Assembly (NCBI GenBank): GCA_038060895.1
Contig: JBBTCT010000035.1
Coordinates: forward strand, 44,891 to 95,109
Source: Planctomycetota bacterium
GTDB lineage: Bacteria; Planctomycetota; MHYJ01; WSZJ01
Direction: 5' to 3'
Length of the DNA stretch: 50,219 nucleotides
Shown here in pieces: positions 6,165-43,826 of this stretch. Numbering within the stretch: the first letter of the stretch is position 1; the number at the start of each line of letters is the position of its first letter. The notes under the pieces are model-generated. The model ran no database searches. It saw only the letters and a program-made list of their open reading frames with translations, and was not told the origin of the DNA. Made by a program: the position numbers and the translations under genes.

Positions 6165-8054
6165 ATGACGGCACCCGCCCCCCGCCTTTCAGCGATCCTC
6201 CCCTCCGGCCGCGCGCCGGTGACGCCTCGCGGGAGGTTGGCGGACGGTGGAGAAATATTGCCCATCGAGGACCTCGTCGAGCCGTGGATCCTCTCGGGGG
6301 CTCGCGGCGCGATTCGCATCACAGGAGGGCCAGGATCAGGGAAGTCGGTCGCGCTGGCGCATCTCAAAGCGGCCCTGGGTCCACAAACGGACGTCGTGAT
6401 CCTCGACGACGCGTGGATGAAGGCCGTTGAAGCGGACGCCCAGCGGTCCCTGGTCATCTTCACTTCGTCGCAGAAGCTCCGGGTCGGGCTTCTCGCTGAA
6501 ATCGAATTGGCCCCCTGGGGGGACGACGACGCAATCGAGTACCTGCTCGCGATGCACCGCGGGCGTTGCACTTCGGTCATGAAGCGCCTGCTGGCGGACG
6601 TCCGGCGCGACGCGATCCTGAAGGGTTCTCCCGAGATTTTCCGGATCGTGCTCGAAGCGCTTGCTGCGTCCGAGTCGATCCCTGATGTCACAGCCGCGCT
6701 GAAGCGGGAGCTTGAAGCGCGGTTTCCGGACGCCGCCACGAAAGAAGAAATCCTCCTGCTGGCGTGGAGTCTGGTCGTGCACTCCGCGGAAATCTCCGGT
6801 CAAGGCTCGGCCTGGAAAATTCCCAACTGGGTGCTTCCGCTGTTGCGACATCGAGCGGTTTGCCTCCTGCTGGCGGCAGAGTTGGTCGTAACGCATCTCG
6901 CCGCGAGGACCGAAATAAGCCCCCTGAGCGAACGGCTTCCCCGGGACCTGATCCAGCCCGTCGCGCTGCTGGCCCGGTCGCAGCCGTCCGTGGTTGCGGC
7001 TCTGCGGGCGACGGCCTGTTCCCCTGGACCTGTGAAGTCCCAACCGAACATCGCGAGTCTTCTCCTCGCCATCGACCCGGATTGGCGCCCGTCCGGACTT
7101 CTCAAACTCAGCGGTGCATTCCTGACCGGGGCCCGGTGGAACGGCCTCAATCTCGGAGGCGCCGAGCTCATCGGCGCCCAGTTGAAAAGTGCCGACCTCT
7201 CGAATGCCGACCTCTCGGCCGCCAACCTCCGCCGGGCCGACTTGACGCGCGCCAATCTCACGGGCGCCAACCTGGCTGCCGCGTCGGCAGGGGAAGCGAT
7301 CTTCGACTTTGCCAACCTGTCGTTCGCGCGGCTCGATGCCGTCGTGATGCGGCACGCCCACCTCCACGGCGCAATTCTCCGGAGCGCTTCCCTCGCCGGT
7401 GCGGCCCTCGTGGAATCGGACTTCGAGGACGCGGACCTCGCGGATGCCAACCTGGCGCGCGCTTCGCTCCGCCGTGCCCGATTTGAAGGCGCCAACCTGC
7501 GCGGCGCCAGCCTTGCCGGTGCGATTGCGCCTGACACCATCTTCAACACGGCCCGCCTCGCCGGCGCGCTGTTCCATCGCGCCCAGCTCCAGCGGTGCGA
7601 CTTCGAGGGAGTCGAACTCCAGGCGCCGGATTTCTCCAGCGCCGACCTGACCGGGGCCTTCTTCACCGACTCGACGCTTCCGCGCGCGCAGTTCCGCGGC
7701 GCCATTCTTGCCGAGGCCGGACTGGCCGGCATCGAGTGGGAACGCGCTGACCTGCGCGAAGTGGATTTCAAGAATGCATCGTTTCACCTTGGATCCTCGC
7801 GAAGCGGCCTGGTGAATTCGCCGCTCGCCAGCGAAGGCACGCGCACGGGCTTCTACACGGACGACTCCGCCGAGCAGGATTTCAAGGCGCCGGAGGAAAT
7901 CCGAAAGGCAAACCTGCGCGGAGCGGATCTGCGCCTGGCGAAGGTCCTGGAGACGGATTGGTACCTCGTGGATCTGCGCGACGCCTTCTACTCGCCCGAA
8001 CAGGGCGAGCATTTCAAGCGGTGCCGGGCCATTCTCGCGGATCGGGCGAAGTAG
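6165..8054 (+). CDS. P-loop (NACHT-like) domain fused to pentapeptide repeats
   Basis: Walker A GGPGSGKS, Walker B-like VVILDD; long A(D/N)Lxx repeat tract in the C-terminal half. Confidence 0.85.
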   Translation: MTAPAPRLSAILPSGRAPVTPRGRLADGGEILPIEDLVEPWILSGARGAIRITGGPGSGKSVALAHLKAALGPQTDVVILDDAWMKAVEADAQRSLVIFTSSQKLRVGLLAEIELAPWGDDDAIEYLLAMHRGRCTSVMKRLLADVRRDAILKGSPEIFRIVLEALAASESIPDVTAALKRELEARFPDAATKEEILLLAWSLVVHSAEISGQGSAWKIPNWVLPLLRHRAVCLLLAAELVVTHLAARTEISPLSERLPRDLIQPVALLARSQPSVVAALRATACSPGPVKSQPNIASLLLAIDPDWRPSGLLKLSGAFLTGARWNGLNLGGAELIGAQLKSADLSNADLSAANLRRADLTRANLTGANLAAASAGEAIFDFANLSFARLDAVVMRHAHLHGAILRSASLAGAALVESDFEDADLADANLARASLRRARFEGANLRGASLAGAIAPDTIFNTARLAGALFHRAQLQRCDFEGVELQAPDFSSADLTGAFFTDSTLPRAQFRGAILAEAGLAGIEWERADLREVDFKNASFHLGSSRSGLVNSPLASEGTRTGFYTDDSAEQDFKAPEEIRKANLRGADLRLAKVLETDWYLVDLRDAFYSPEQGEHFKRCRAILADRAK

Positions 8055-8066
8055 GCGGCCCCGGAT

Positions 8067-9602
8067 TCATACCGTGGCCGGTTCGAGCGGCGGAATCCCC
8101 GCGTTGCGGCATGCCTCGCGCATGGGTTCAAGCCGCCGCCTCCAGGACCTCTGGAGGTTCAGTTCCAGGACGATCGCCGACCCGGCCTTCCAAGTCGATT
8201 TCGCCTCCTCGAGACGCCCGAGCGCGAGCTGGCAGAGCGCGAAGTCGCACAGGTTGAGGCCCTCGGCCTGGCGGTTTCCGACCTCGCGGTGGATCGCCAG
8301 CACTTCCGCGTAGAGCCGTTCCGCTTCCGCGGCGCGCCCCGTGCGCAGCCAGAAACCGGCGATGTTGCCGAGCGATACGCCTTCGGACACGCGGTCGCGG
8401 ATCTCACGCTGGATCGCCAGGGCCGCCTCGAAGTTCCGTCCCGCATCACCAAGCCGGCCGCTCTCCTCGTAGAGGATCGCGATGTTGCCGAGAAGCGTGG
8501 CCTCGCCGGCCCGGTTACCGATTTCGCGGAGGATCTCCAGCGACTGCTGATAACCGGCTTCCGCTTCCGCGAGGCGGCCCGTCTGCTGGTGAAGGATCGC
8601 CCGGTTTCCGACAACGATGCCGAAATAGCGCCGGTCGCCGGTTTCGCGGTGGATCGCGAGCGCCTCCTCGAAGATCGCCTCGGCGAGCTCGACGCGGCCC
8701 GTTTCCCGGTAGATCGTGCCCAGGGTGCCGAGCGCGACGCCCTCGAAGCGGCGATTGCCGACTTCCCGATGAATCGCCAGGGCCCGCGCGCAGACGACCT
8801 CGGCTTCTGCCTTGCGCCCCGTGTCGTTGTACAGGAGGGCCACGTTGCCCAGCGTGATCCCCTCCGAACGGCGGTTTCCGTTCGCGCGGTGAACGGCGAG
8901 CGACTCCTCGAAAGTGGACTCCGCAAGCGCGGTTCGCCCGGTTTCGCGGAGCAGGTTTGCGAGGTTTCCAAGAGTCGCGCCGTGGGTGCGGTCGTCGCCG
9001 CACTCGAGGTGAATCGAGAGAGCCTCCCGGAAGCCCTTCTCCGCCTCCACCCGGCGCGCCGTCATGTTGTAGAGGCTCGCAAGGCTGCCCATCACCAGCC
9101 CCTCGAGCCGCCGGTGCCCCGCGGCACGCAGCATCGCAAGCGCTTCCTCGAACATCTCCTCCGCCAGCGCGTGTCGCCCCGTCTGGAACGCCACGTGCGC
9201 CGCCCGCCGCACCGCTTCGCCCCGGCCGGCCCCGTTTTCCAGCGCAGCCTCCGCACGCCAGAGCCGGATGGCGTCATCGATGGCAAAGGTCCGTTCCGCA
9301 TGCCCCGCCGCCCGCCGCAGGTACAGCCGCTGTGAAGCGACGTCGCCCGTGAGCCGCGCGTGATCCGACAGCTCCCGTGCGAACGTGTCTCCCGGGAGCG
9401 AGCGGTCCTCGAGATCGCTCTTTGCCTCCAGCGCCCCTTGCTCCGGCGGGCGTCCGCCCGCGACCTGCTCGATCAGCGCGAAGGCCAGCGCATGGAGCCT
9501 CGCCCGGTCGCCCGGGAGCTGGAGCTGGTAGGCCGCGTCGCGCAGCAGCGCGTGACGAAACAGGTACGCGCACTCTGCGAAAGCGGGGGGACGCTGCGCC
9601 AA
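8067..9602 (-). CDS. Stand-alone FRH-motif TPR protein, copy 1
   Basis: YLFRHALLRDAAYQLQLPGDRARLH then ~40-aa TPR repeats (GNRRxEGxxLGNLA); start uncertain, in-frame TTG at 9602 just after the upstream stop. Confidence 0.85.
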   Translation of the reverse strand: MAQRPPAFAECAYLFRHALLRDAAYQLQLPGDRARLHALAFALIEQVAGGRPPEQGALEAKSDLEDRSLPGDTFARELSDHARLTGDVASQRLYLRRAAGHAERTFAIDDAIRLWRAEAALENGAGRGEAVRRAAHVAFQTGRHALAEEMFEEALAMLRAAGHRRLEGLVMGSLASLYNMTARRVEAEKGFREALSIHLECGDDRTHGATLGNLANLLRETGRTALAESTFEESLAVHRANGNRRSEGITLGNVALLYNDTGRKAEAEVVCARALAIHREVGNRRFEGVALGTLGTIYRETGRVELAEAIFEEALAIHRETGDRRYFGIVVGNRAILHQQTGRLAEAEAGYQQSLEILREIGNRAGEATLLGNIAILYEESGRLGDAGRNFEAALAIQREIRDRVSEGVSLGNIAGFWLRTGRAAEAERLYAEVLAIHREVGNRQAEGLNLCDFALCQLALGRLEEAKSTWKAGSAIVLELNLQRSWRRRLEPMREACRNAGIPPLEPATV

Positions 9603-9606
9603 CGCT

Positions 9607-11127
9607 CTATCGCCCGGGCGCGCCGGCCAGCAACTGGTTGAGCGCCTCGCGGACAAGCTCCGGGCCGAACGGTTTCTGGAGGAAGCGAACCCCGGGACGG
9701 TTCAGGATGTCGGGCCCGAGGTCGTCCTTGGCGTAACCGGACATGAAGAGCACGGGCAGCAACGGGTCGCGCTGCCAGAGGCGTTCGGCGAGTTCACGGC
9801 CTCCCATGACGGGCATGACCAGGTCCGTGACGAGCGCGTTCGCGGCACGCGCGGACTCTTCGAGCGCCTGCAGCGCCAGCTTCCCGTCCGGCGCTTCCAG
9901 CACGTCGTACCCGGCTTCGCGGAGCGTGGCGGTGACGATGCGGCGGACTGAAGACTCGTCTTCGGCCACGAGGACGAGGGGGCGCCCTGTGGGTGGGCGC
10001 GTGATCGAAGTGCCGGGAGGGTCGATGGCCGCGGGGCTGGATTCGCGGGCCGCGGGAAACAGGAGCGAGAAAATGGAGCCCTTTCCCGGCACGCTCTCCG
10101 CCGTGATGTGTCCGCCGTTCTGCTTCAGGATTCCGTAGCAGGTGGCGAGACCAAGCCCGGCGCCGTTCCCGATTGTTTTCGTGGTGAAGAACGGTTCGAA
10201 GAGATGCTCGAGGACTTCGGGGGGCATGCCGGTCCCGGTGTCCGAGAGGACCACGCGCACGAACTCCCCGGCCTGGGTCGCGCGCTCCGTCCGGATCGTG
10301 AGGGTTCCGCCTGCCGGCATTGCGTCGCGTGCGTTCGTGGCAAGATGGAGAAGCACGTCTTCGAATTGCGCGGGGTCGATCCAGAGCGAGGGAAGTTCAG
10401 CGGCCATTTCCGTGCGAAGCAGGACGCCGTTGCTCAGGGTCCCCGCAAGCCGGTCGCGCATCTTCTCAAGCAGGACGTTGGCGTTCACCGCCTGCGGCCG
10501 CGCGCTCTGCTTTCGCGCGAACCCCAGCAGCGCCCGCACCAGTCCCGCCGCGCGTGTCGCCGATTCCCGGATCGGGTCCAGATCCTGGCGGGCTTCCGGG
10601 ATCCGCCTCCCGAGCCCGTCGGCATACCCCAGGATCACCGTCAGCATGTTGTTCAGCTCGTGCGCCACTCCGCCCGCCAGCCGCCCGACGCTCTCAAATT
10701 TATCGGCTTCCTGCGCCTTCGCTTCGAGCCGCTTCAGCTCCGTGATGTCCTCCACCATCGCCTGCCACCCGCGACGTCCGTCCAGCGCGATCGGCTCCAG
10801 GCTCAGCCGGGCGAGGTAGTGGGAACCGTCTTTGCGCTTGAAGAGCACCTCGTGCTGTCGGAGGAAACCCTGGCTTCGCGCGAGGGCCAGCGCGCGGTCG
10901 CGGTCGTCGTTCGAGGCGTACAGCGCGGCGACGTTGCCGATTTTCTGGATGTCCTCCCGCGTGTATCCGCCGGGCCGCATCATCGCTTCGTTGTAGGCGA
11001 GAAGCGTCCCGCGCTCGTCCGCGACCCCCAGCCCGACGGGGGAGTTCTCAAAGAGCGTCCGGTACCGGGCTTCGCTCTCGCGAAGCGCGCGTTCCGCGGC
11101 GGATTCGGGATCTCCTGATGCGGTCAT
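9607..11127 (-). CDS. PAS-domain hybrid sensor histidine kinase/response regulator (CckA-like architecture)
   Basis: PAS, H-box AHELNN, NARDAM, DTGTGM, FEPFFTTK, GAGLGL, receiver VAEDE...TDLVMP...KPF. Confidence 0.93.
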   Translation of the reverse strand: MTASGDPESAAERALRESEARYRTLFENSPVGLGVADERGTLLAYNEAMMRPGGYTREDIQKIGNVAALYASNDDRDRALALARSQGFLRQHEVLFKRKDGSHYLARLSLEPIALDGRRGWQAMVEDITELKRLEAKAQEADKFESVGRLAGGVAHELNNMLTVILGYADGLGRRIPEARQDLDPIRESATRAAGLVRALLGFARKQSARPQAVNANVLLEKMRDRLAGTLSNGVLLRTEMAAELPSLWIDPAQFEDVLLHLATNARDAMPAGGTLTIRTERATQAGEFVRVVLSDTGTGMPPEVLEHLFEPFFTTKTIGNGAGLGLATCYGILKQNGGHITAESVPGKGSIFSLLFPAARESSPAAIDPPGTSITRPPTGRPLVLVAEDESSVRRIVTATLREAGYDVLEAPDGKLALQALEESARAANALVTDLVMPVMGGRELAERLWQRDPLLPVLFMSGYAKDDLGPDILNRPGVRFLQKPFGPELVREALNQLLAGAPGR

Positions 11128-11246
11128 GCGCGGGGGATCATGTTCATGGGCGTGATGTTATCTGCGCGAGGGGCGAGGTAACAAGCAAGGCCGACATGCC
11201 AGGGCGGGTGAGTTCAGGCGGCCTCAAATGCCGCCGAAATCGGCGT

Positions 11247-13013
11247 TCATTCGGGTGCCCGATCGAGCGGCGGTACGCCTGCCCGCCGGCAGATTTCGAG
11301 CATATCTTCGGAAATGCGCTTCACCGTCCGGGTGTCCGCCAGGTCGATGAGCCGCGTGGCTCCCTCGTTCCACGCAACGCGCGCTTCGTCGATTCTCCCC
11401 CGGTCCGCAAGGAGGCACGCCAGTCGAAGCTGCGTCAGGCCCGCGTCACGCAGGTTCTGCACCTCCCCGTGGATCCGGTAGGCTTCGCGGTACATCGATT
11501 CCGCCGCCTCCGGCCGCTTCGTGAAAACGAAAACTTCCGCCAGTCCCATGAGGTCCATTCCCTCGTGCCGCCGATTGTGTGTTTCGCGGTGAAGCGCGAG
11601 GGCGTGCCCGTAGGAGGTCTCGGCGCTCGCGTAGCGTCCGGTGTCGCGGTAGAGGCCGGCGAGGTTGCCCAGCGCCATTCCCTCCCGCCGGCGGTCTCCC
11701 AGGGGGCGCAGGATGTCGAGGGCCTGCCCGTACAAGGACTCCGCTTCTTCGAGCTGGCCGGCATCACGGAGGAGGTTCGCGAGGTTGACGAGGGTGAGTC
11801 CCTCGGAAGCGCGGTTGCCCGTTTCACGGTGGATGGCGAGAGCTTCACGCTGGGTCCGTGCCGCGGCCTCGGCGCGGCCCGATCCGCGGTAAACGTTGGC
11901 GAGGTTTCCAAGCATGATTCCCTCGTATGTCCGGGCGCCGGTTTCGCGGAGGATCGCCAGCGCCTTCTCGTAGAGGTTTTCCGCCTCGAGGAGGCGACCG
12001 GTGTCCGTGTTGAGGCTGGCGAGGTAGCCCAGCACGAGGCCTTCCCCGCGGCGTTCCCCGACCGCGCGATGAACCACCATCGCCTGCTCGTAGAGCTGCC
12101 GGGCCGCTTCGACTTCCCCCCGGTCCGCGAGGAGGTTTCCGATGTTTGCGAGCGTCGATCCCTCGTTCCGGCGGTCGCCGGATTCTCGCTCCAGGACGAG
12201 CGCGGCCCGCAGCGTGTCTTCCGCCAGCTTCGCGCGCGCCGTTCCCCGGTAGACGTGCGCCAGGCCTGCCAGCGCCACGCCCTCCCTGCCCCGGTCGCCG
12301 GAACGGCGCACGATGGAGAGCGCTTCATTGTGAAGTTCCTCCGCGCGTTCCATGCGCCCCGTGTGAAGGAAGACGGCTCCCAGGTTCATCACCGCCATTC
12401 CCAGGGCGCGAGCGTCGTCCGAGTCACGCAGCAGAACCAGCGCTTCCTCGAGCAGGCGCTCCGCCTCCGGAAGCCGCCCTAGGTTCTTGAACACCATTCC
12501 CAGGTCCACGGTCGCGATCGCCGTCAGCCGGGGATGGTGGCAGGTCCGAAGCGCGTCGACGGCGCTTTCGAGAAGCTCCCGGGCCGCATCCGTCCGTCCT
12601 GCGCGGTTCGCCGACACGCCGGCCCGGCGAAGCGCTTCACCCCGCTCCAGTCCGCTCGACTCGGCTGCGTGGCGGCGCCACAGTCGTTCGGACACGTCGC
12701 CGCGGTCATTCCGGTCGGCGTTCGCGGCCGCCCTGCGGCGGTACCAACCTGCCAGCGCGCGGTCCTCGCTCGATGAAGACAGCGCCGCATGCTCGGAGAG
12801 TTCCTCCGCAACAGCATCCGCCGGGTGAGGCGTCAGGGACTGAGCCCCGGGCGCGTCGATGGCGCCCGGCTCCGGCGCGCGTCCGCCGCACATCCGCTCG
12901 ATTGCCGCGAAAGCGAGCCCGTGGAGCCGCGCGCGGTCGCCGGGAAGCTGAAGCTGATAGGCAGCGTCGCGCAGGAGCACGTGCCTGAAGAGGTACGCCG
13001 TTTCAGCGCCCAG
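11247..13013 (-). CDS. Stand-alone FRH-motif TPR protein, copy 2 (probable CTG start)
   Basis: CTG-GGC-GCT-GAA-ACG-GCG-TAC-CTC-TTC-AGG-CAC aligns to MNAETSYLFRH of copy 4; SD AGGAGG upstream; TPR repeats. Confidence 0.85.
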   Translation of the reverse strand: MGAETAYLFRHVLLRDAAYQLQLPGDRARLHGLAFAAIERMCGGRAPEPGAIDAPGAQSLTPHPADAVAEELSEHAALSSSSEDRALAGWYRRRAAANADRNDRGDVSERLWRRHAAESSGLERGEALRRAGVSANRAGRTDAARELLESAVDALRTCHHPRLTAIATVDLGMVFKNLGRLPEAERLLEEALVLLRDSDDARALGMAVMNLGAVFLHTGRMERAEELHNEALSIVRRSGDRGREGVALAGLAHVYRGTARAKLAEDTLRAALVLERESGDRRNEGSTLANIGNLLADRGEVEAARQLYEQAMVVHRAVGERRGEGLVLGYLASLNTDTGRLLEAENLYEKALAILRETGARTYEGIMLGNLANVYRGSGRAEAAARTQREALAIHRETGNRASEGLTLVNLANLLRDAGQLEEAESLYGQALDILRPLGDRRREGMALGNLAGLYRDTGRYASAETSYGHALALHRETHNRRHEGMDLMGLAEVFVFTKRPEAAESMYREAYRIHGEVQNLRDAGLTQLRLACLLADRGRIDEARVAWNEGATRLIDLADTRTVKRISEDMLEICRRAGVPPLDRAPE

Positions 13014-13218
13014 ATTCTGTCCCCTCCTGTTCGGGCTCCGTTCCGAGCCGGTCCCAGAACCAGACGGCGACTACGCCGGTAGACTTGTCGCATGAGTGGC
13101 TGATCGAGACGAGCTGGCGCGGATCGAGACGGTTGGCGAAGAGCATCGCCTGACCGAACAGCGTCTGCCAGGATTCCGTCGTGGATTCAAAATGCCTGAA
13201 CTTCAGCAGCGGTTTCAT
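13003..13218 (-). CDS. Small hypothetical protein (71 aa)
   Basis: Protein-like composition (SWQTLFGQAMLFANRL...VSISHS...VVAVWFW); stop overlaps the start of the next gene. Confidence 0.6.
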   Translation of the reverse strand: MKPLLKFRHFESTTESWQTLFGQAMLFANRLDPRQLVSISHSCDKSTGVVAVWFWDRLGTEPEQEGTESGR

Positions 13219-13374
13219 CGTTGCGGAACCTCCAATCGGTTTCGGCCAGCGTGGCGGTCAGGAATCCTATCCGGTGCGCAGGGACGTTTGCACGAGCCGG
13301 TATTTCTCGCGGTTGCGAAACCACCGGCAATCATGGAAGCTGCGCGGCCTGCCACCCCAACCGGAGTTCTCCCC

Positions 13375-14898
13375 ATGCCTCGTCTGCTCCTGGCCGTTCT
13401 GTTCGCCATCCTCGCAGTCCCCGTCCTCGCGCAGGACGCCTCTCAGCCGACGGGGAAGCGCGACCTGCTGATCGTGATCGACTGCTCGGGAAGCATGATG
13501 GGGGAGACCCCGGACGGGGTCGTGAAGCTCGATGCGGCCAAGAAAGTCCTCGGAAACCTGATCGAGAAGCTGTCTCCTGATCTGAATGCGGGCCTGCTCG
13601 CGTACGGCCACCGCGTGCTGGCGTCCGACCCCGGCACCTGCGCGGACATCGAGCTCGTCGTCCCCGTGGTCGCCACAGACAAGGCCCTGCTGGCAGGCAA
13701 AGTCCGCGCGCTCAAGGGAATGGGCCGGACGCCTATCGCCGCTTCGCTGACAAAGGCGGGCGAAATCCTCAAGGCTCTCGGGACCGACCGCGAGAAGTCG
13801 CTGATCTTCGTCACCGACGGCCTCGAGACCTGCGGCGGCGACCCGAAGGCCGCGGCAGCGGCGCTTCAGGCCCTCGGCATCAAGCTCGACTTCGTCGTCA
13901 TCGGCTTCGACCTCGCCGACTCGGAGGCGAAGGCCATCGCGGCGATTGCGGAAGCGGGAAAAGGGAAGTACATCGACGCGAAGAATGCGAAGGATCTGGA
14001 GGACGCTTTCAAGAAGGCGCACGAAGCGGTCGTGGTCAAGGCGCCAGAGGTGGGGAAGGGCGAGATCCTCGGCGCGGCGGGGCCGGGCGCTATCCAGATG
14101 GTCGGGCGCAAGGAAGGGGAGTTCCCGGTCGCGTCGGTGCTGGTTGCGAAACGGACGGACGAGGTGAAGGACCTGCCGCGCGGCGACGCGCACGGGCTCG
14201 TCTTCGCCGATTTCTTCGGCCTCGGGGTTCGAATCCGCGAAGTCGCGGACGGTTCCCCGGCGAAGAAGGCGGGGATCGAACCGGGCGACCTCGTCGTGCG
14301 CGCCGACGACGTCGCGATCACGTTCGCGAAACAGCTCACGGAGTTCCTTGCCGCGCCCGCCACCGCCGAGGACGCCGCGAAGCCCTGGCGCCTCAAAGTC
14401 GCCCGCTTCCCGCTAGCCACCGAAATTCTCAACCCGTGGATCGAGATCGACTGCCCGAAGCAGGAGGTCAATTCCGGCGACTACTACATCTTTCTTTCCG
14501 GCAGCAAGGGCTCCAACGACACCGGCATCGACGGCATCGACGCAAACGTCCTCAAGGCCACCGGAAGCTGGCTCTCGCCGTTGCGCTGGGCGATGCGCGT
14601 CGAGCCGAAGATGACCGTCGAAGTCCCGCTCAACACCGGCTTCCGATTCGTCGCCGGCCAGACGAAACACGAGGTCGAGGACGAAGTCCGCATCGTCGAC
14701 GACGTGCGCGGCGTCGAGATCCTGCGGTTTTCGGCCGCCTCACTCGGCAAGCTCGAGTGGGAGGACGCGCCCACCGTGATTTCGCTTCCGCCCGGCACGT
14801 ACACGATGGAGTGGCGGAGGCGCGAAGGGAAGACGTGGTTCGAGATCACGAAGGGGTACGCGTTTGACGGGAACAAACTGGTCGACGTGAAATTCTGA
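13375..14898 (+). CDS. Secreted VWA-domain protein with PDZ domain
   Basis: Signal peptide MPRLLLAVLFAILAVPVLA; MIDAS DCSGS, TPIA, VTDGLETCGGDP; PDZ GVRIREVADGSPAKKAGIEPGD. Confidence 0.88.
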   Translation: MPRLLLAVLFAILAVPVLAQDASQPTGKRDLLIVIDCSGSMMGETPDGVVKLDAAKKVLGNLIEKLSPDLNAGLLAYGHRVLASDPGTCADIELVVPVVATDKALLAGKVRALKGMGRTPIAASLTKAGEILKALGTDREKSLIFVTDGLETCGGDPKAAAAALQALGIKLDFVVIGFDLADSEAKAIAAIAEAGKGKYIDAKNAKDLEDAFKKAHEAVVVKAPEVGKGEILGAAGPGAIQMVGRKEGEFPVASVLVAKRTDEVKDLPRGDAHGLVFADFFGLGVRIREVADGSPAKKAGIEPGDLVVRADDVAITFAKQLTEFLAAPATAEDAAKPWRLKVARFPLATEILNPWIEIDCPKQEVNSGDYYIFLSGSKGSNDTGIDGIDANVLKATGSWLSPLRWAMRVEPKMTVEVPLNTGFRFVAGQTKHEVEDEVRIVDDVRGVEILRFSAASLGKLEWEDAPTVISLPPGTYTMEWRRREGKTWFEITKGYAFDGNKLVDVKF

Positions 14899-14905
14899 GA
14901 GTGGG

Positions 14906-14932
14906 GCGGTGGCTCCGGGGGCCGGCCACCGC
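14906..14932. terminator. GC hairpin just after the VWA gene (terminator or REP-like)
   Basis: GCGGTGGC...GCCACCGC 8-bp stem, no U tract. Confidence 0.4.
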
Positions 14933-15080
14933 TACCTCGCCCAGACGGCATCCCGGTTGACGGCGGCCAGGTTATTCTTGAGCCCTCTGAGCGTGAAATG
15001 ACGCCTGGATTCCTGGCGAATCGACCCCCCCGCGGCACTCTACCGGAAGACTTCGCCCGCGCGTCGCCTATCATTCCCGC

Positions 15081-16757
15081 GTGAACTCGGAATCGGCGTA
15101 CCTGTTTCGTCACGCCCTGCTGCGCGACGCCGCGTATCAGCTCCAGCTTCCCGGCGACCGCGCACGGCTGCACGCGCTGGCGTTCGGGCTGACCGAGGAT
15201 CTCCTCGGCGGCCGCGCCCCGGAACTGCCGCCGCTCGGCACGCCCCGGCAGGAGCGCTTCGAAACCCATCCGGCGGACGGCGTTGCCTTCGAGCTCGCGG
15301 AGCACGCGCGGTTGGCGATGGAAGGCGGCGCGGACGATCCACGCGCCCGATTGCCGGAGGCGCGGCGGCTCTACCTGCGGCGCGCCGCGGAATTCGCCCG
15401 GTCGAATTATCGCTTCGACTCTGCCGCGCAAGCCTGGCAGCTCCTGGCCGAACTCGTGACGGGCATCCAGAAAGGCGAAGCGCTTCGGCAGGCGGCGGAA
15501 GCAGCGAGCTTTCGAGGCCGGCCCGGGGCGGCCGCGCCGCTGTTCGAAAGCGCCCTTGTGCTGTTCCGCGAGTCGGGCGACCGGCGGCTCGAGGCCCTTG
15601 CTCTCACGAACATCGCGGGAATTCACCGGGCGGCAGGGCGCGTCGAGCCGGCGGAAAAAACGTTCGCGGAAGCGCTGGCCGTGCTGCGCACGCTGGGCGA
15701 CCGACAGCTGGAGGCCATGGTGCTGGGAGACCTCGCGACGCTCTTCGAGGACACCGGCCGGCTTGAAGACGCCGAGCGGACGATGGCGGCCGCGCTCGCC
15801 GTGCACCAGGAAGCCGGCGACGCAACCCGCGAGGGCATCGCCCTGGGCAACCTTGGTGTCGTCTACACCAAGCGAGGCCGCCTCGCCGACTCCGAGCGCG
15901 TCCTCCGCAAGTCCCTCGAAATCCACCGCGCCCTCGGCAACCGCCGCCAGGAAGGCATCACCCTCGGGCACCTCGCCTTCCTCATCCTGGAGTCGGGCCG
16001 CTTCCGCGAGGCCGCCGGGCTTTTTCATCTCACCCTCGCGATCCACCGGGAAGTCGGCAACCGCCGCGGCGAGGGCGACGTCCTCACAAACCTCGCTGAC
16101 ATCGAGCGTGCCGAGAGGCGCCCGCTTCAGGCGGAGGAGCTGTTCGTGAAGTCCCTCGCGATCCACCGCGATGTCGGCAACCGGCGCTCCGAGGGCCGCG
16201 TTTTCGGCAATCTCGGTCTCGTCTACGACGACCTGGGGCGGGAAGAGGACGCTGAGCGCGCCTACGAAGCGGCGCTTGCAATCCACCGCGAAGTGGGCAA
16301 CCGGCGCTCCGAGGGCATCACGCTGGGCAACCTGGCCAGCTTACGCGATTCGCAGGACCGGGACGCGGAGGCCGAGCGCCTCTGGCTTGAAGCGCTGGCG
16401 CTTCACCGTGCCGTAGGCAATCGCCGCTCCGAGTCCACGTCGCTCACGGGCCTTGCGCTCCTGAACGCGAAGACCGGCCGGGAGGAGGCCGCGGCGACGC
16501 TGATGGAGCAGGCGCTCGTCATCGACCGGACGCTCGTCAACCCCGCGCAGACCGGGACCCACCTCTGCCAGCTCGCGCGCGTCCTCGTCGTCACGCGGCG
16601 TGAGAAGGCGAAGCGGGCGTGGGAAGAGGGGATGGGCATCCTGAGGGAGGCGAAGAAGGAGAACGAAATCAGCAGCCAGGTGAGGCAGATGCGGGATCAC
16701 TGCGCGGCGAAGGGGGTGCCGGGTATTGGGGATCCGTCTCCGGCCCCGGGACCCTGA
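15081..16757 (+). CDS. Stand-alone FRH-motif TPR protein, copy 3
   Basis: GTG start, MNSESAYLFRHALLRDAAYQLQLPGDRARLH, TPR repeats; TATCAT 6 nt upstream. Confidence 0.88.
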   Translation: MNSESAYLFRHALLRDAAYQLQLPGDRARLHALAFGLTEDLLGGRAPELPPLGTPRQERFETHPADGVAFELAEHARLAMEGGADDPRARLPEARRLYLRRAAEFARSNYRFDSAAQAWQLLAELVTGIQKGEALRQAAEAASFRGRPGAAAPLFESALVLFRESGDRRLEALALTNIAGIHRAAGRVEPAEKTFAEALAVLRTLGDRQLEAMVLGDLATLFEDTGRLEDAERTMAAALAVHQEAGDATREGIALGNLGVVYTKRGRLADSERVLRKSLEIHRALGNRRQEGITLGHLAFLILESGRFREAAGLFHLTLAIHREVGNRRGEGDVLTNLADIERAERRPLQAEELFVKSLAIHRDVGNRRSEGRVFGNLGLVYDDLGREEDAERAYEAALAIHREVGNRRSEGITLGNLASLRDSQDRDAEAERLWLEALALHRAVGNRRSESTSLTGLALLNAKTGREEAAATLMEQALVIDRTLVNPAQTGTHLCQLARVLVVTRREKAKRAWEEGMGILREAKKENEISSQVRQMRDHCAAKGVPGIGDPSPAPGP

Positions 16758-16826
16758 AGATCTGCGGGCTCAGGCTGCGTCGGCCCGCGAAAGAACTCCC
16801 GATCACAAACCATCACCCGGACGACG

Positions 16827-18344
16827 TCATCGGCGTCCCGCCTCGAACAAGTCCGCCCCTGCCGCTTCGCACGCCTTCTTCATCGATGCACGCTTCGCGT
16901 CGAGATCCAGCGTGTCGCCCAGTTCGCGCAGGATCGCCGCGCCGGCGAGCCACTCGCCCCGCGCTTCGTCCGCGAGGCCGCGTTGGAGCAGCAGGAGCGC
17001 GTGGTCGCAGCGGTGCGTGCCCTCAAATCCACGGTTGCCGACCGCCCGGTGGATCGAGAACGCCTCCTGGAACATCCGCTCCGACTCTTCGTGCCTGCCG
17101 GCCGCTGAGAGCAGGCCCCCGAGATTGCCCAGGAGGATCCCCTCGGACCGGCGGTTGGCGACCTCGCGGTGAAGAGCCAGCGCTTGCCGCATGAAATTCT
17201 CCGCTTCAACCAGGTTTCCAGTCTGTTGGTGCAGCTGGCCGATGTTGCCCAGCGCGACGCCTTCGGAGCGCCGGTTGCCGATATCGCGGTGGATGGAGAG
17301 AGATTCATGGAAGAGCCGTGCGGCGTCTTCGGGACGGCCGGTTCTGGCAAGCTGGTTGCCGAGATTGCCGGCGATCAGGGCGAAGGCCCGCCGGTCCCCG
17401 ACGTCGCGGGTGATTTCGAGCGCACGGCGGTAGTCCCGCTCGGCCTCTTCCGCCCGCCCCGTGTCGGCGTAGAGCGCCGCCCGGTTTGCGAGGTGGTTTC
17501 CCTCCGTGCGGAGGTCGCCGTGCGCGCGGGCGTGCCGAATCGCCTCGTCGTAGCGGCGCTCCGCGACGTCGAAGTGGCCGAGATTGTGGTCGAGGTTCGC
17601 GCGGTTTCCAGTGACGATCGCGACGCGACGCTCGTCGGCGCACGCTCGCAGCAGCGCCAGCGCTTTTTCGAACGCCGTTTCTGCTTCGGCCATGCGGCCG
17701 AGGTCCTTGAGGAGAAGCGCCCGCCCGGCGAGCGCGCCGCCCTCGGCGTGGGGGTCGTTCATTTCGCAAAAGATCTCGAGCGTGCGGTCGTAGCAGCGCC
17801 GGGCGCGCTCGACCGAGCCGGTTTCGCGATGAAGGGTCGCGAGGCTGTGGGTCGCCATGCCTTCGCCGCGGCGGTTGTTCGCCCGGAGGTGGAGGACGAG
17901 CGCGCGACGATAGAGGAGGTCCGCCTGTTTCCAGCGCCCGGCGACGTGCGCGACGTCCCCCGCGCGTCGAAGGGCTTCGGCCCGCTCGCTTCCCGCTGTA
18001 ACTTCCGCTAGGCGCCGCCACAGCCCTTCAGCGGCGGCGTTCTGGAAAATCGTCTCCGCGAATTCCGCCCCGCGTCCCAGGTAGCGGCGCTGCACTTCCA
18101 GCCGCCCGGACAGCCGCGCGTGCTCCGCAAGCTCCCCCGCGAACCGGTCGGACGGATGCGCTTCCGGCCGGCGTCCGTCCATGGCGGCCAGCGGCGGAGG
18201 CTCAGGGGCCGCGCCGCCGCAGACGGATTCGATTGCCGTCACGGCCAGGTCATGCAGTCGCGCGCGGTTGCCGGGAAGCTGAAGCTGGTAGGCCGCATCG
18301 CGTAGAAGCGCGTGACGGAATAAGTAAGAGGTCTCCGCGTTCAT
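16827..18344 (-). CDS. Stand-alone FRH-motif TPR protein, copy 4
   Basis: MNAETSYLFRHALLRDAAYQLQLPGNRARLH, TPR repeats. Confidence 0.88.
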   Translation of the reverse strand: MNAETSYLFRHALLRDAAYQLQLPGNRARLHDLAVTAIESVCGGAAPEPPPLAAMDGRRPEAHPSDRFAGELAEHARLSGRLEVQRRYLGRGAEFAETIFQNAAAEGLWRRLAEVTAGSERAEALRRAGDVAHVAGRWKQADLLYRRALVLHLRANNRRGEGMATHSLATLHRETGSVERARRCYDRTLEIFCEMNDPHAEGGALAGRALLLKDLGRMAEAETAFEKALALLRACADERRVAIVTGNRANLDHNLGHFDVAERRYDEAIRHARAHGDLRTEGNHLANRAALYADTGRAEEAERDYRRALEITRDVGDRRAFALIAGNLGNQLARTGRPEDAARLFHESLSIHRDIGNRRSEGVALGNIGQLHQQTGNLVEAENFMRQALALHREVANRRSEGILLGNLGGLLSAAGRHEESERMFQEAFSIHRAVGNRGFEGTHRCDHALLLLQRGLADEARGEWLAGAAILRELGDTLDLDAKRASMKKACEAAGADLFEAGRR

Positions 18345-18345
18345 C

Positions 18346-18373
18346 GGGAGTGGGGAGTGTTGAGTGTGGAGAG
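18346..18373. repeat. Degenerate heptamer tandem repeat
   Basis: GGGAGTG GGGAGTG TTGAGTG TGGAGAG. Confidence 0.55.
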
Positions 18374-40155: not shown

Positions 40156-40373
40156 GGAACCGGCAACTTCAATTTCAACTTCAAGTTTCAATTTTCAAGC
40201 AAACAGCAACTTCAAACAGACAACTTTAAAGACCCTGTGACTGCGAGAGGTCTTCGACAGGGCAATTTGGTTTTCGCCAAAGAACACGACACTCGCCCGC
40301 CGCGCCCGTTGAATTTGCATTCTTGTAGTTCGCCGTTTGCTTGAAAGTTCGTCGTTTTGAAGTTGTCGGTTCC
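40156..40373. repeat. AT-rich 218-bp element with nested inverted repeats
   Basis: Terminal 17-bp IR (16/17) at 40156-40172 and 40357-40373; inner perfect 12-bp IR at 40193-40204 and 40335-40346; TTCAA tandem units. Confidence 0.7.
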
Positions 40374-40475
40374 GCGGCGCCCCGGCGCCGCGGCTCCCCA
40401 TTGGCGTCACGCAGCGCTCTCGCTATCCTGTGGGGTCCCGGCGCAACGTCGCCCCCCCTTTCATCAGAGGTCCGT

Positions 40476-43400
40476 TTGCCTCATCCCATCTCCGCCGAAG
40501 TTCGCACGATCACCGTCCTCGCGGGCGAGGTCCTGATCGGCACACGGCCGGAGGTGGAACCCACCCCGCTCGCGCCGCCCGGGCTCGCTTCCCGGCTCAA
40601 GGAGATCATCGAAGCGGCCGGCGGCCGGCTGGAGCTCGGGCCGACGCCGGATTTCGCGGCGGTGTTCGGGACGGCGCACACGAACGACGAGGACCCGGTC
40701 CGCGCGGTGCGTGCGGCGCTGGCGATCCAGCGGGAGGCGGCGAGCCTGTCGGCGGTGGTCCGCGGGCCGCTGGCGTTCCGGATCGGGGTGCACACCGGGG
40801 AGATCCCGTGGTCCGGGCCCGGCGCGGGCCGCACCGAGGGCCTGCGCGAATCGCTGAGCGTCGCGAGGCTCCTGGCGCATGCCGCGCACGCCGGCGCCGT
40901 GCTCGTCAGCGAAGGCATCATGCGCGCCGCAGCAGCCCGCTTCCGCTTCAAGCCGTCCCCCGCGGGCGAGGGGACGGCGTACGAAGCCGTCGGGGAGGTC
41001 GAGACTCGAAGGGAGCCCCGCGAGGAACTGGCGACGACGACGGTGGGTCGCGAGGCGGAGCTGGCGCGGCTGATGGAGGCGTTCGATGCGAAGGCGGGGG
41101 AATTCGTGTTGATCGAGGGGGACGCGGGGGTCGGGAAGAGCCGCCTGCTCTACGAATTTCACCGGCGGCTGATCGAGCGCAACGTTCCCGTGCTCGTGGC
41201 ATTCGGGCGGGCATACGAAGGTCCGCCGATTCCGCTGAGCGCGATCGGCGACCTCGTGCGGCACGCGGCCGGCGTCACGGGGCTCGAGCCCGGCGACGGC
41301 GAACGGCTCGCGGCGTGGTTCTCGGAGCAACTCGAAGAGTCGATTCCCGACGCGATCGACCGCGAAAACTGCTCTCACCTCATCACGCTCTCCCTCGGCC
41401 TCGCGCTTCCCCCGACTCGCGTCGCGCAGATCGAGCCGGGCCGCGTCCGCAGCGAAACCCACTACGCATGGCTGCGGTGGCTGCGCGCCCTCGTCGCGCG
41501 CCAGGCGGTCGTCCTGTGCCTCGAGGATCTTCACTGGGCCGACGACGGCACCCTCGCTCTGCTCGAATCCCTCGCCGCCGGCATCTCCGGCGAGCGCGTC
41601 ACCATCGTCGGCACCCGCCGCCCCGCCGCGAAGACTCCCCGCGGTTGCACGCGCGTCCGCCTCGAAGAACTGCCGCGCGAAGCGACCGCAAAGCTCGCGG
41701 AGGAAATTTTCCACGGCCCCGTCTCCGACGAGCTCGCCGAGTTCCTCTTCCAGCAGTCCGGCGGCCATCCTTATTTTTACGAGGAACTTTCCCGCTACCT
41801 CGTCGAGGCCGGGCTCGTCAGCGGAACTCCCCTCCAACTCGTTTCCCGGCCCCGGAAACTTCCCGACGGCCTCCACGGCCTGCTCGTCGCGCGTATCGAC
41901 TCGATGGGTCACGACGATCGCGAAGTCCTCAAGGCCGCCAGCGTCTTCGGCCGCTTCTTCTGGTCCGGGCTCCTCGAGCAGGCGGTGTACGGGAAAGTTG
42001 AGAAGGGCCTCGAGCGGGCTCGGCGGCGGCAGATCGTCGTGCCGCGCGCGCGGTCGCTGATCCCGGGGGACCACGAATACGCCTTCCGTCACGACCTCCT
42101 GCGGGACGCGGCCTACTCGCTGCTGACCGCCCGCGAGAAATCGCGGCTGCACCGCGTCGTCGCCGACCTCCTTGAACCGCACATCGCCAGCGGCGGGCGC
42201 CGCATCCGCGCGCTCGTCGCCGTGCACCGCGAGGCCGCCGGAAAAAAGGAGGAGCCCGCGCGACTCTGGCTGGAAGCCGCCGAGGAGGCGCTTCGCGAAT
42301 CCGCCTATTCCGAAGCGCTCTCGCATGCGCGCGACGCACAGAGGCTCGGGCGCGGCCCCGCGGCGCGCCTGGTGGCCGCGCGCGCTCTCGTCCGGCTCGC
42401 GCGGCTGGACGACGCGCTGATCGAGGCGACGGCCGTTGCAGGATCGCCGGATGCGTCGGCGGAAGAATCGGCAAGCGCACGGCTGCTGGAAGGAGAGATC
42501 CACGGCCGCCGGGGGGACCGCGAGGCGTTCCTCGCCATCGTGGAAAAGGTGGCGGCGGCGAACCCGCCGGGGTTCGTGCTGCCGGAAGCGCTGATGCAGA
42601 AGGCGCGCGTGCTGTGGGGGATGAGCCGGAACGAAGAAGCGCTGAAATGCGTCGAGGAGGTCCGCGCGCGGACGAAGGCACTGGCGACCGCGGCCAACGA
42701 ACGTCAGGTGGCGAAACTGACGGCGGACTCGTGGGGAATCGAGGGAAACGTCCGCTGGAAGCAGAGGCGCTGGCCCGAGGCCGCCGCGGCCTACGACCGC
42801 GTCCTGGAAATCGCCACTCGACTGGGCGATCGCCTGGCCACCGCTTCCGTCTTCAACAGCGTCGGCGCGCTCCACCGGGACCAGGGGAAGGATACTGAAG
42901 CGCGGGCGGCGTTCGAGCGGGCTCTGGGGATCCTCCGCGAAATCGGCGACCGCATCGGGATTGCCTCCGCGCTCGGGAATCTGGGGCTCGTCTATCGCGA
43001 ATCGGGCGATCTGCAGGCGTCGGCAACAGCCCAGCGCGAGTCGCTCGCCATCTTCCGCCAGACGGGCGACCTGCATGCGGTCGCCCGCGGCCTGAAGGCG
43101 CTGTCGGACGCCCTGCTGGACGGGGGAGAGCTCGCGGCGGCGCTCGGGCACCTGGACGAAGCGCTGGAACTCGCGCGGCGAATCGGTGACCGCTCAGCCG
43201 AGATGCTTGCGCTTCGCAATCTTGGCCAGGTGCACGCCGTGCTTGGCGATGAGGCGCGCGCGCTCGATGAGCTGACGCAGGCCTTTGAGATGGCCCGCGC
43301 CGAGGGGAACCCGTTCAACATGGCCTTCATCCAGACGCGTCTCGGCGAACTTCACGCGGACGCCGGCTTTCCTGAAAAAGCAGCGGCCGCTCTGGACACG

Positions 43401-43826
43401 GCCATCCGCGTTGCGTCCGAACGCACTCTCGACGACGTCCTGACCCTCGCGCTTCTCGCCCGTGCGCGCCTGCAGGCTTCGACCCGTGGCGTCGAAGCCG
43501 CGGCGGATGCGCGGCGCGCTCTCGAGATCTCCGTGCGCAAGAGGAACGAAGGACACGAGGCTTCGGTGCGCGCCGTGCTCGCCCGGATCGCGGCCGCTTC
43601 GGGGGATTCCGGCCAGGCGCACGACTTCCTCGGGAAGGCGCACGACATGGCCGGCCGTTGCGTCGTTTTCCAGGAGCGCCTGCGGTTCCTGGCCGATCTC
43701 TCGGCCGCCCACGCGGCGATGGGCGAGGTGGACGAAGCGCGTCAAGCGGCGGGGGAGGGGGAGCGACTGGCGCGCGGGCATGGCGCGGTCAGGTTTGCCG
43801 AACGCTTCGTCGCCCCGGGAAAGTAG
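40476..43826 (+). CDS. Degenerate class III cyclase + STAND/AAA ATPase + TPR protein
   Basis: DPVRAVRAAL, RIGVHTGE; VGREAEL, GDAGVGKS, LEDLHWAD, GGHPYF, YAFRHDLLRDAAY, TPRs; TTG start at 40476 after GAGGT (start uncertain). Confidence 0.9.
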   Translation: MPHPISAEVRTITVLAGEVLIGTRPEVEPTPLAPPGLASRLKEIIEAAGGRLELGPTPDFAAVFGTAHTNDEDPVRAVRAALAIQREAASLSAVVRGPLAFRIGVHTGEIPWSGPGAGRTEGLRESLSVARLLAHAAHAGAVLVSEGIMRAAAARFRFKPSPAGEGTAYEAVGEVETRREPREELATTTVGREAELARLMEAFDAKAGEFVLIEGDAGVGKSRLLYEFHRRLIERNVPVLVAFGRAYEGPPIPLSAIGDLVRHAAGVTGLEPGDGERLAAWFSEQLEESIPDAIDRENCSHLITLSLGLALPPTRVAQIEPGRVRSETHYAWLRWLRALVARQAVVLCLEDLHWADDGTLALLESLAAGISGERVTIVGTRRPAAKTPRGCTRVRLEELPREATAKLAEEIFHGPVSDELAEFLFQQSGGHPYFYEELSRYLVEAGLVSGTPLQLVSRPRKLPDGLHGLLVARIDSMGHDDREVLKAASVFGRFFWSGLLEQAVYGKVEKGLERARRRQIVVPRARSLIPGDHEYAFRHDLLRDAAYSLLTAREKSRLHRVVADLLEPHIASGGRRIRALVAVHREAAGKKEEPARLWLEAAEEALRESAYSEALSHARDAQRLGRGPAARLVAARALVRLARLDDALIEATAVAGSPDASAEESASARLLEGEIHGRRGDREAFLAIVEKVAAANPPGFVLPEALMQKARVLWGMSRNEEALKCVEEVRARTKALATAANERQVAKLTADSWGIEGNVRWKQRRWPEAAAAYDRVLEIATRLGDRLATASVFNSVGALHRDQGKDTEARAAFERALGILREIGDRIGIASALGNLGLVYRESGDLQASATAQRESLAIFRQTGDLHAVARGLKALSDALLDGGELAAALGHLDEALELARRIGDRSAEMLALRNLGQVHAVLGDEARALDELTQAFEMARAEGNPFNMAFIQTRLGELHADAGFPEKAAAALDTAIRVASERTLDDVLTLALLARARLQASTRGVEAAADARRALEISVRKRNEGHEASVRAVLARIAAASGDSGQAHDFLGKAHDMAGRCVVFQERLRFLADLSAAHAAMGEVDEARQAAGEGERLARGHGAVRFAERFVAPGK

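Follow-up and report, generated by a model that had tools for sequence, protein, structure and literature searches.

Stand-alone TPR proteins as probable sensor subunits of a naturally split, NLR-like STAND switch in Planctomycetota

Signal-transducing ATPases with numerous domains (STAND) and the NLR switches (named for nucleotide binding and leucine-rich repeats) are taken to need sensor and NTPase in one chain, which couples ligand binding to release of an ADP clamp. In the plant sensor/helper NLR networks of the NRC type, many diversifying sensors feed a few conserved signaling units, and the coiled-coil/nucleotide-binding (CC-NB) and leucine-rich-repeat (LRR) fragments of Rx complement each other in trans, i.e., an NLR cut between NB-ARC and the repeats can work as two polypeptides. 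We describe here four genes for short tetratricopeptide repeat (TPR) proteins in a 50,219-nt stretch of a Planctomycetota genome (GenBank assembly GCA_038060895.1, contig JBBTCT010000035.1, positions 44,891 to 95,109, forward strand; the whole stretch is called the window below). The four proteins are probably sensor subunits of a naturally split STAND (NLR-like) switch, acting in trans on a truncated NTPase, the hub, encoded outside the window. Whereas NRC-type sensors and helpers are each complete NLRs, the sensors here are without an NTPase, and whereas the split in Rx is artificial, the one here would be natural and lies inside the winged-helix domain (WHD). The grounds for this reading are the complementary boundaries of the two halves, the conservation of both, their co-occurrence across genomes, an unsplit relative, and a predicted complex that passes its controls.

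Full-length STANDs of the cyclase-AAA_16-TPR type (TIGR03903-like) have the same domain order as hub plus sensor: cyclase, nucleotide-binding domain (NBD), helical domain (HD), WHD with YxFRHxLLRDAAY, arm, and TPR array. One of them, an unsplit paralogue of 1161 aa at 40341..43826 (+), lies in the window and is context, outside the split pair. Unlike in these proteins, the chain here breaks within the WHD wing hairpin; the part N-terminal to the break is single-copy and has two cyclase domains, whereas 19-85 diverged copies exist of the C-terminal part, many of them behind their own promoter-like box. The logic of nucleotide-oligomerization domain (NOD), arm and TPR is also common to MalT and PH0952, which are single polypeptides with one sensor and, according to excerpts of the structural literature (PMC6468293), are autoinhibited via contacts of arm and sensor with the NBD. 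A PDB sequence search with a full-length paralogue returned TPR proteins only (LGN/Pins best), with no solved close NOD and no relatedness to MalT/PH0952-type STANDs beyond the TPR repeats. Antiviral STANDs (Avs) are likewise STAND NTPases with repeat sensors. Within the excerpted text of a 2026 survey of bacterial STANDs, split proteins are mentioned only as adjacent genes (PMC13581612), and an extract on NTPase conflict systems describes separate proteins recruited to a core NTPase via effector-associated adaptor domains (PMC8195603); as far as these extracts go, modular links there lie on the effector side or between adjacent genes, unlike the arrangement of one hub and many sensors found here. 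The kinase-TPR expansion reported for Planctomycetota does not, in the extract at hand, concern this sensor family (PMC11032199). Across full-text literature, supplements excluded, we found no description of the sensor family or of a STAND with one hub and many sensors.

The window's own genome (G000) comprises 5,418,064 bases in 47 contigs and is 86.5% complete. A preliminary description of the window, made from its letters alone, had listed four open reading frames (ORFs), and all four are present. Copy 1 (8067..9602, (-) strand) encodes 511 aa from a TTG at 9602, beginning with the WHD-tail motif and continuing into arm and TPR array; it lies directly downstream of a PAS-HisKA-HATPase-REC gene (9607-11127), with its TTG 4 nt past the kinase stop. 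Copy 2 (11247..13013, (-)) encodes 588 aa if the CTG at 13013 is the start. Copy 3 (15081..16757, (+)) encodes 558 aa from a GTG, and copy 4 (16827..18344, (-)) 505 aa from an ATG. Copies 3 and 4 open M-N-x-E-x-x-Y-L-F-R-H-A-L-L-R-D-A-A-Y-Q-L-Q-L-P-G, and the first 40 residues of copy 4, MNAETSYLFRHALLRDAAYQLQLPGNRARLH... (18225..18344, (-)), match the S8 strand of the WHD, its His and its last helix, and form the predicted hub contact. The start register said to be shared by copies 2, 3 and 4 holds for copies 3 and 4; copy 2 offers a CTG as the sole codon there, its first canonical start (GTG 12980) falling within the motif, and copy 1 starts six codons earlier rather than the five given before. 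In-frame stops lie 25-45 codons 5' of the motif in the four genes. Pfam finds TPR families only in all four proteins, with no NTPase family at E ≤ 0.01: TPR_12 scores 129.8-179.7 bits in each (cut-off 30.1), and three pass the TPR_MalT cut-off (>45 bits), copy 3 reaching 37.3 bits. The proteins are 42-44% identical overall and near-identical across their first ~35 residues. Metatranscriptome contigs without differing letters fall inside all four genes (three runs, one sample), e.g., at 8714-8914 and 8951-9115 in copy 1, and one begins exactly at 15081, the start of copy 3; the uncovered parts of the window carry no information.

The position of the cut emerges from aligning the junctions. Full-length proteins read 'sLlPGDxxYxFRH', the hub stops after 'GVLIPAD/E', and the sensors start 'M-N-A-E-x-x-Y-L-F-R-H'; because the one ends and the other begins in this way, the cut falls at the turn of the WHD wing hairpin. 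The YLFRH of the sensors aligns with the internal motif of 11 full-length paralogues in the same genome and of a further protein (P0153), and only the tail of the WHD is present in the sensors. The preliminary description had taken YLFRH for the STAND WHD His motif and had placed an internal copy at 42078-42116 of the full-length gene; this alignment, together with a match to TIGR03903 positions 828-866, bears out the former, and the internal copy is there. On the 1267 positions of TIGR03903, the NCBIfam profile for the unsplit TOMM system kinase/cyclase fusion protein, hub residues 307-779 fall on 382-814, and residues 4-239 of the sensor on 828-1053, the profile being used purely as a ruler for the split point (hub 66.5 and sensor 24.5 bits; curated cut-off 705.75). 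Hub and sensor thus occupy contiguous, non-overlapping parts of this profile, and likewise of the unsplit protein described below. In PH0952, the tip of the wing hairpin is at residues 374-376, and H382, just beyond it, binds the ADP phosphates, according to excerpts of that study (PMC6468293). From the junction alignment, the TIGR03903 mapping and the PH0952 hairpin position it follows that strand S8, the His and the last WHD helix reside in the sensors, together with arm and TPR array.

The hub is a single-copy protein of 802 aa on another contig (G000:C15:117791-120196, (-)) with two Guanylate_cyc stretches (62.1 bits against a Pfam cut-off of 21.9) followed by AAA_16. It terminates in '...LLESQREGVLIPADGPQTAAAKS*', and no TPR remnant lies between this end and the next gene, an ECF (extracytoplasmic function) sigma-PDZ gene. 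Going by class III motifs, the first cyclase domain presumably keeps the two metal-binding Asp residues and the second the Asn/Arg pair (GDAVNTSARL), and the two domains would form one pseudo-heterodimeric active site. Homologues of the hub form 44 clusters with 60-100% identity over the queried NTPase part and 52-90% over the whole protein (alignment A3). All 42 full-length clusters among them are 773-808 aa long, contain only Guanylate_cyc and AAA_16, and end in ...EGV[LIM][IV]P... plus a short variable tail. The next match beyond these clusters, at 34% identity, is a 1330-aa unsplit protein with a sensor-like motif, YIFKHALLRDAAYEMQL. Across the genomes searched, hub open frames measure 791-940 aa.

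A STAND gene ending just before the motif, which the preliminary description had suggested looking for, therefore exists and is conserved as such; the two partners it had named do not fit. The gene given there as 40476-43826 (here 40341-43826) has its own motif and TPR array, and that at 6165-8054 has its own pentapeptide-repeat sensor. A multimer prediction, also proposed there, passes its controls, with the 802-aa hub as the partner in place of either named NTPase. The core of that description, in which the genes are maintained as latch-plus-sensor modules and work in trans with a STAND NTPase that is sensor-less, is supported.

Hub and sensors occur together. In 41 relatives, a hub orthologue (72-87% identity) is present in G000 and in six of the seven other genomes of its genus, and in none of 33 others; the sensor signature has 20-85 matches in each of the eight genus genomes, and one and three weak matches, internal to long frames, in two others. 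A second, independent split that an 862-aa frame in G023 might have represented was rejected, since the motif is part of that frame, which extends up to the end of its contig; the remaining weak matches in G023 are internal to frames of 1200-1337 aa. For the phylum as a whole, an even sample of 401 genomes contained the hub in 21 and the signature in 22 (both in 21, sensors only in 1, hub only in 0, neither in 379). The positives comprise the window's own family, a second family that does not belong to the window's class (17 genomes), and a single further genome, G069. Second-family hubs are 59-67% identical to the query, in frames of 791-913 aa, and four near-complete genomes of that family have one hub match and 19-44 sensor matches each, the latter in frames of at most 839 aa. 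The exception in form is G069, where a hub-like part (41% identity) is continuous with the motif in one 1110-aa frame ('...ERVILPEAMRGAAGAEAAYLFRHALMRDAAYHLHLP...') containing Guanylate_cyc, AAA_16 and TPR_12 (Pfam); this is the sole signature match in that genome, which has no free sensors. A single-sequence AlphaFold2 model of the unsplit protein was uninformative (mean pLDDT, the predicted local distance difference test, 39.9).

The distribution of the two halves bears directly on a different and, in our view, unlikely account, in which the short proteins regulate or act as decoys for full-length cyclase-AAA_16-TPR STANDs, competing or heteromerizing via the retained WHD tail. Such partners are at hand: a hidden Markov model (HMM) built from the N-terminal part of six full-length paralogues found 16 full-length ORFs in the window's genome, plus one ORF, that of the hub, which stops at the end of the model, and the full-length set, one member of which is in the window, has a related internal motif (YxFRHALLRDAAYSLL...). 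These proteins, however, own the strand and the His and so leave no vacancy, and their internal SLLP-type sequence is distinct from the QLQLPG-type signature of the short proteins. Many genomes of the order and class have full-length AAA_16-TPR proteins without the short family, and it is the truncated hub that the short family tracks. The sensor N-terminus, sought among proteins of 885-2525 aa, gave no match at E ≤ 0.001, which is weak evidence in the same direction.

Beyond the genome, 108 clusters of 277-884 aa match the N-terminal 110 residues of copy 4. They contain TPR families only, except for a 798-aa protein (P0029) with an extra APH-type kinase domain, derive from Planctomycetota-labeled metagenome-assembled genomes (MAGs) where a source is named, and have no annotation beyond 'tetratricopeptide repeat protein'. 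When 1.84 billion representatives were searched with a profile built on the first 55 residues (alignment A2), 1837 proteins matched at E ≤ 0.001 and 575 at E ≤ 1e-10. In this check, of a kind that the preliminary description had proposed, matches fall almost exclusively at protein N-termini: among the best 150, 121 begin at residues 1-8, 28 at residues 9-75, and one is spurious, with no genuine match longer than 798 aa. The spurious one, top-ranked P0229, is a repetitive low-complexity protein summing 16 weak matches. The proposed system would give a functional handle on annotations of this kind in uncultured Planctomycetota, amounting to 575 representative clusters at the stricter threshold.

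For structure prediction, copy 4 was used both as the monomer model and as the first row of the partner chain. Alone, it is predicted as a confident TPR solenoid (mean pLDDT 94.6) whose most conserved residues, 1-20, are the least confident (64-65). Hub residues 400-802 (alignment A3) with ADP were then paired with sensor residues 1-230 (alignment A4). The predicted complex scored 0.69, 0.67 and 0.69 on the interface measure ipSAE, versus 0.00 for the best of three controls; of 80 solved complexes 58 attain the ipSAE mark, as do 2 of 110 mismatched pairs. The partner pLDDT does not fall below 84, and 94% or more of the contacts are common to the runs. In the model, sensor residues 3-22 and 27-41 contact hub residues 747-769 (WHD helix), 787-792 (the GVLIPA strand) and 440-441, the last of which we take for the P-loop because of the hub's GEPGLGKT motif, and sensor Y7 and F9 pair against hub 789-790. 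The predicted complex supports binding of sensor to hub. A search for charge covariation across the interface was dropped: sensor position 20 is Q in 47 of 49 copies in G000, hub residue 760 varies N/R/K in near orthologues, and no clean pattern resulted.

Another account makes the short proteins independent TPR scaffolds or adaptors, with the N-terminal peptide a tag for a chaperone, protease, localization factor or self-association and the STAND WHD origin historical only. Pfam and NCBIfam see only TPR repeats, the monomer model is a complete solenoid with a poorly placed N-terminus, the closest folds to copy 4 are the peptide-binding TPRs of LGN/Pins (Foldseek E 6e-11), and most sensor genes are scattered, unlinked to the hub. 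The likeness to LGN/Pins is in repeat type only, these being eukaryotic polarity scaffolds without STAND context. We regard this account as improbable, for it leaves unexplained why, of the genomes searched, precisely those with the short proteins have a conserved NTPase whose end is complementary to them, as well as the unsplit form in G069 and the predicted strand pairing beside the P-loop.

Taken by the preliminary description as a set of four, the sensor genes really belong to a family of about 60 copies in this genome. A six-frame regular-expression scan found 66 motif sites, far more than chance would give, of which 60 are N-terminal with QLQLPG-like residues next (in-frame stop 7-100 codons earlier, rarely more; consensus xAExxYLFRHALLRDAAYQLQLPGDRARLH) and six are internal (517-583 codons upstream, SLLP-like residues next). 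A start codon stands 6, 7 or 9 codons ahead of the Tyr in 55 of the 60 (38 at -6, 14 at -7, 3 at -9; two CTG included), window copy 1 being among the five without one. Tandem arrays with a 4-nt stop/start overlap are common (e.g., C6 16014-17426, 17423-19186 and 19183-20616). A TANNNT hexamer lies 12-15 nt before the start in 24 of the 49 intact copies, compared with 0.56% of 5000 random positions, a spacing that has the geometry of leaderless transcripts as judged from sequence; window copy 3 has a -10-like TATCAT (15069..15074, (+)) 6 nt upstream of its GTG, of the leaderless promoter type, and copy 2 a Shine-Dalgarno-like AGGAGG (13023..13028, (-)) 9 nt upstream of its CTG. In a subgroup of sensors a C/T-rich leader (CAYACTCAAYACTCCCCACTCCCG-ATG) replaces the -10-like box (window 18344-18372; G000:C5:117369, C5:111841 and C24:139972).

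Over 32 codons from the Tyr (49 intact copies, 1176 pairs), the proportion of synonymous differences (pS) is 0.54 and that of nonsynonymous differences (pN) 0.11, a ratio of ~0.13, and the motif Arg is encoded by all six Arg codons across copies; it is therefore the peptide that is conserved and not the DNA, as had been concluded earlier from synonymous differences among the four window genes, which are indeed visible, and the motif is under purifying selection in the dN/dS check that had been proposed. Column entropy is 0.27 bits in motif residues 7-31 versus 2.01 bits in the TPR region, where structural repeat positions are conserved and the positions between them highly variable, with a period of ~40 residues and a conserved Asn in helix A. 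The short proteins are almost certainly real, selected genes of one family.

A family of many copies with a constant 5' end, a variable remainder, both orientations and frequent arrays, including a recent tandem duplication in the second-family genome G248, has the look of a set of cassettes, silent or exchangeable, from which alternative sensor ends would be recombined at the DNA level onto a single expressed NTPase gene, like shufflons or pilin variation. We hold this to be very improbable: the nucleotide identity of the constant region is 77% at the pS given above, the hub gene ends before the motif and thus has no DNA homologous to the cassettes, a start codon of its own precedes most copies and a promoter-like -10 box many of them, and the RNA contigs contain no copy-linking joints save one of low confidence (8191 to 10881, with a side of 21 letters only). 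That the genes are decaying, functionless remnants of truncated STAND genes, as the six fragments of 31-170 aa among the 60 copies and the few copies without a start in register might suggest, is scarcely credible given 49 intact copies of 417-588 aa, a start register kept across the 108 homologue clusters from many metagenomes (the Tyr has index 6 in 64 of them and 7 in 9), strong purifying selection on the motif, the family's presence in two divergent lineages, and frames upstream of every short copy in which no NTPase remnant was found, decayed NTPase DNA there having been named in the preliminary description as a sign against its own proposal.

The sensor bodies diverge fast, and the N-terminal motif stays almost invariant. 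When each copy is compared with its closest paralogue in the genome, the median identity is 48% and no pair exceeds 56%, and the best matches of the window copies in the seven other genus genomes are at 46%, 51%, 52% and 55%. The kinase gene beside copy 1 has a 66% orthologue in one genus genome only (G002), and that locus shares no other window gene. One sensor copy lies two genes from the hub in both G000 and G002, and at this syntenic locus the two genomes can be compared gene by gene: identities are 92% for DUF1800, 90% for DUF1501, 84% for the divergently oriented neighboring kinase, 86% for the hub, 93% for enolase, 65% for ECF sigma-PDZ and 48% for the positional sensor, with 32 of its first 40 residues identical. 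Because paralogues and positional orthologues alike are at most 56% identical, synonymous sites in the TPR part are saturated. At L021 in G248 (G248:C2:733000-745000), one two-gene unit has recently been duplicated within a run of eight tandem sensor genes on one strand; motif position 20 is Glu or Asp in every one of the eight. The pattern, on the sequence comparisons, appears to be a constant N-terminal plug on a fast-changing receptor body, with gene birth and death.

Put together, the split switch would work as follows. The hub would consist of two class III cyclase domains, a P-loop NBD, a helical domain and a WHD ending after the first strand of the wing hairpin (...EGVLIPAD...), and each sensor would add YLF as the second strand, the Arg-His that meets the ADP phosphate in solved STANDs, ALLRDAAYQL as the last WHD helix, and then the arm and a TPR solenoid of LGN-like type with hypervariable surface positions. 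Docking by strand complementation would complete the WHD and bring the His to the bound ADP. A ligand in the TPR groove could then move the arm and free the WHD and its ADP clamp, as excerpts on MalT- or PH0952-type STANDs would lead one to expect (PMC6468293); the hub would exchange nucleotide and assemble, and its tandem cyclase domains would make cyclic nucleotide. The signal may be read in the window's own genus by the neighboring kinase that binds cyclic nucleotide monophosphate (cNMP). Many sensors would share one output, and the sensor set would turn over quickly. Whether the whole is a natural split NLR-like receptor, in which one cyclase hub and 20-85 diversifying TPR sensors, each supplying the last WHD strand, His and arm in trans, multiplex one cyclic-nucleotide switch, possibly for non-self such as phage, prey or kin, we consider an even call.

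Several observations weigh against the assignment of the short proteins as sensors of the hub. Sensor and hub genes are unlinked: no sensor was seen near the hub in the shorter loci L011-L013, and none beside the hub in G248. The sensors-only genome of the phylum survey (G006, 85% complete) has 42 sensor matches and no hub match. Kin not being independent, the co-occurrence counts come down to about two lineages plus one unsplit genome. One hub for ~50 sensors poses a stoichiometry question, and the 16 full-length paralogues with their similar motif could be alternative partners. As to the predicted complex, halves of a split gene tend to pass such a prediction through their likeness to full-length STAND structures, and our own alignments and the ADP riding along depart from the calibration of the method. 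Copy 2 is without a canonical start ahead of the motif. The RNA contigs are a weak sign of transcription, being of low depth, from one sample and possibly DNA carry-over. Finally, no window copy exceeds 55% identity to any match in the genus, and individual sensors may be dispensable.

If the proposed split is true, the latch of a STAND switch is deliverable in trans, one output enzyme can serve dozens of receptors, and sensor repertoires can evolve by gene birth and death without duplication of the dangerous signaling part. The coupling mechanism would also be directly testable with separable parts, which could be a template for modular synthetic sensors.

The cNMP-binding kinase is encoded divergently from the hub (L001:8365-9747, (+), within G000:C15) as 460 aa in which a Ser/Thr kinase is joined to a cyclic-nucleotide-binding domain. 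Its identity in G002 is 84%, a C-terminal peptide indicates its presence at L011 as well, and it is a plausible reader of the hub signal in its own genus. In the second family the hub does not have the kinase-cNMP gene as a neighbor, and a search of that family with this kinase as query gave no clear orthologue. In G248 the next gene downstream of the hub (L022:4556-5443, (-)) encodes an MbnB/TglH/ChrH-like enzyme that modifies ribosomally synthesized and post-translationally modified peptides (RiPPs), and the upstream gene a DUF58 protein; the hub neighborhood is therefore not conserved between the two families.

A 519-aa frame in G000 on C20 (from offset 50408; L009) has an NTPase region that keeps the motif (LLFRHDLLREAAESSL) and ends ~50 residues later with no TPR array, i.e., the opposite truncation, and a 664-aa frame on C22 (from offset 125212) combines a STAND-like NOD and a divergent motif (YKLRHPAMRDAVMS) with a helix-turn-helix-like C-terminal tail and no TPRs. 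Within the window, the gene convergent with copy 1 (6165-8054, (+)) encodes 629 aa in which a P-loop at the N-terminus (weak AAA_16 hit, E 0.006) is accompanied by a long stretch of pentapeptide repeats. The gene at 1962-5987 (-) is for a Ser/Thr kinase of 1341 aa that has numerous WD40 repeats besides a transmembrane-like segment, as is typical of a signaling-rich genome. On the far side of copy 4, a 2119-aa ORF (19449-25808, (-)), to which no family was assigned, is matched in another MAG (L012) by a homologue whose C-terminus is near-identical and whose gene lies directly downstream of that for the hub.

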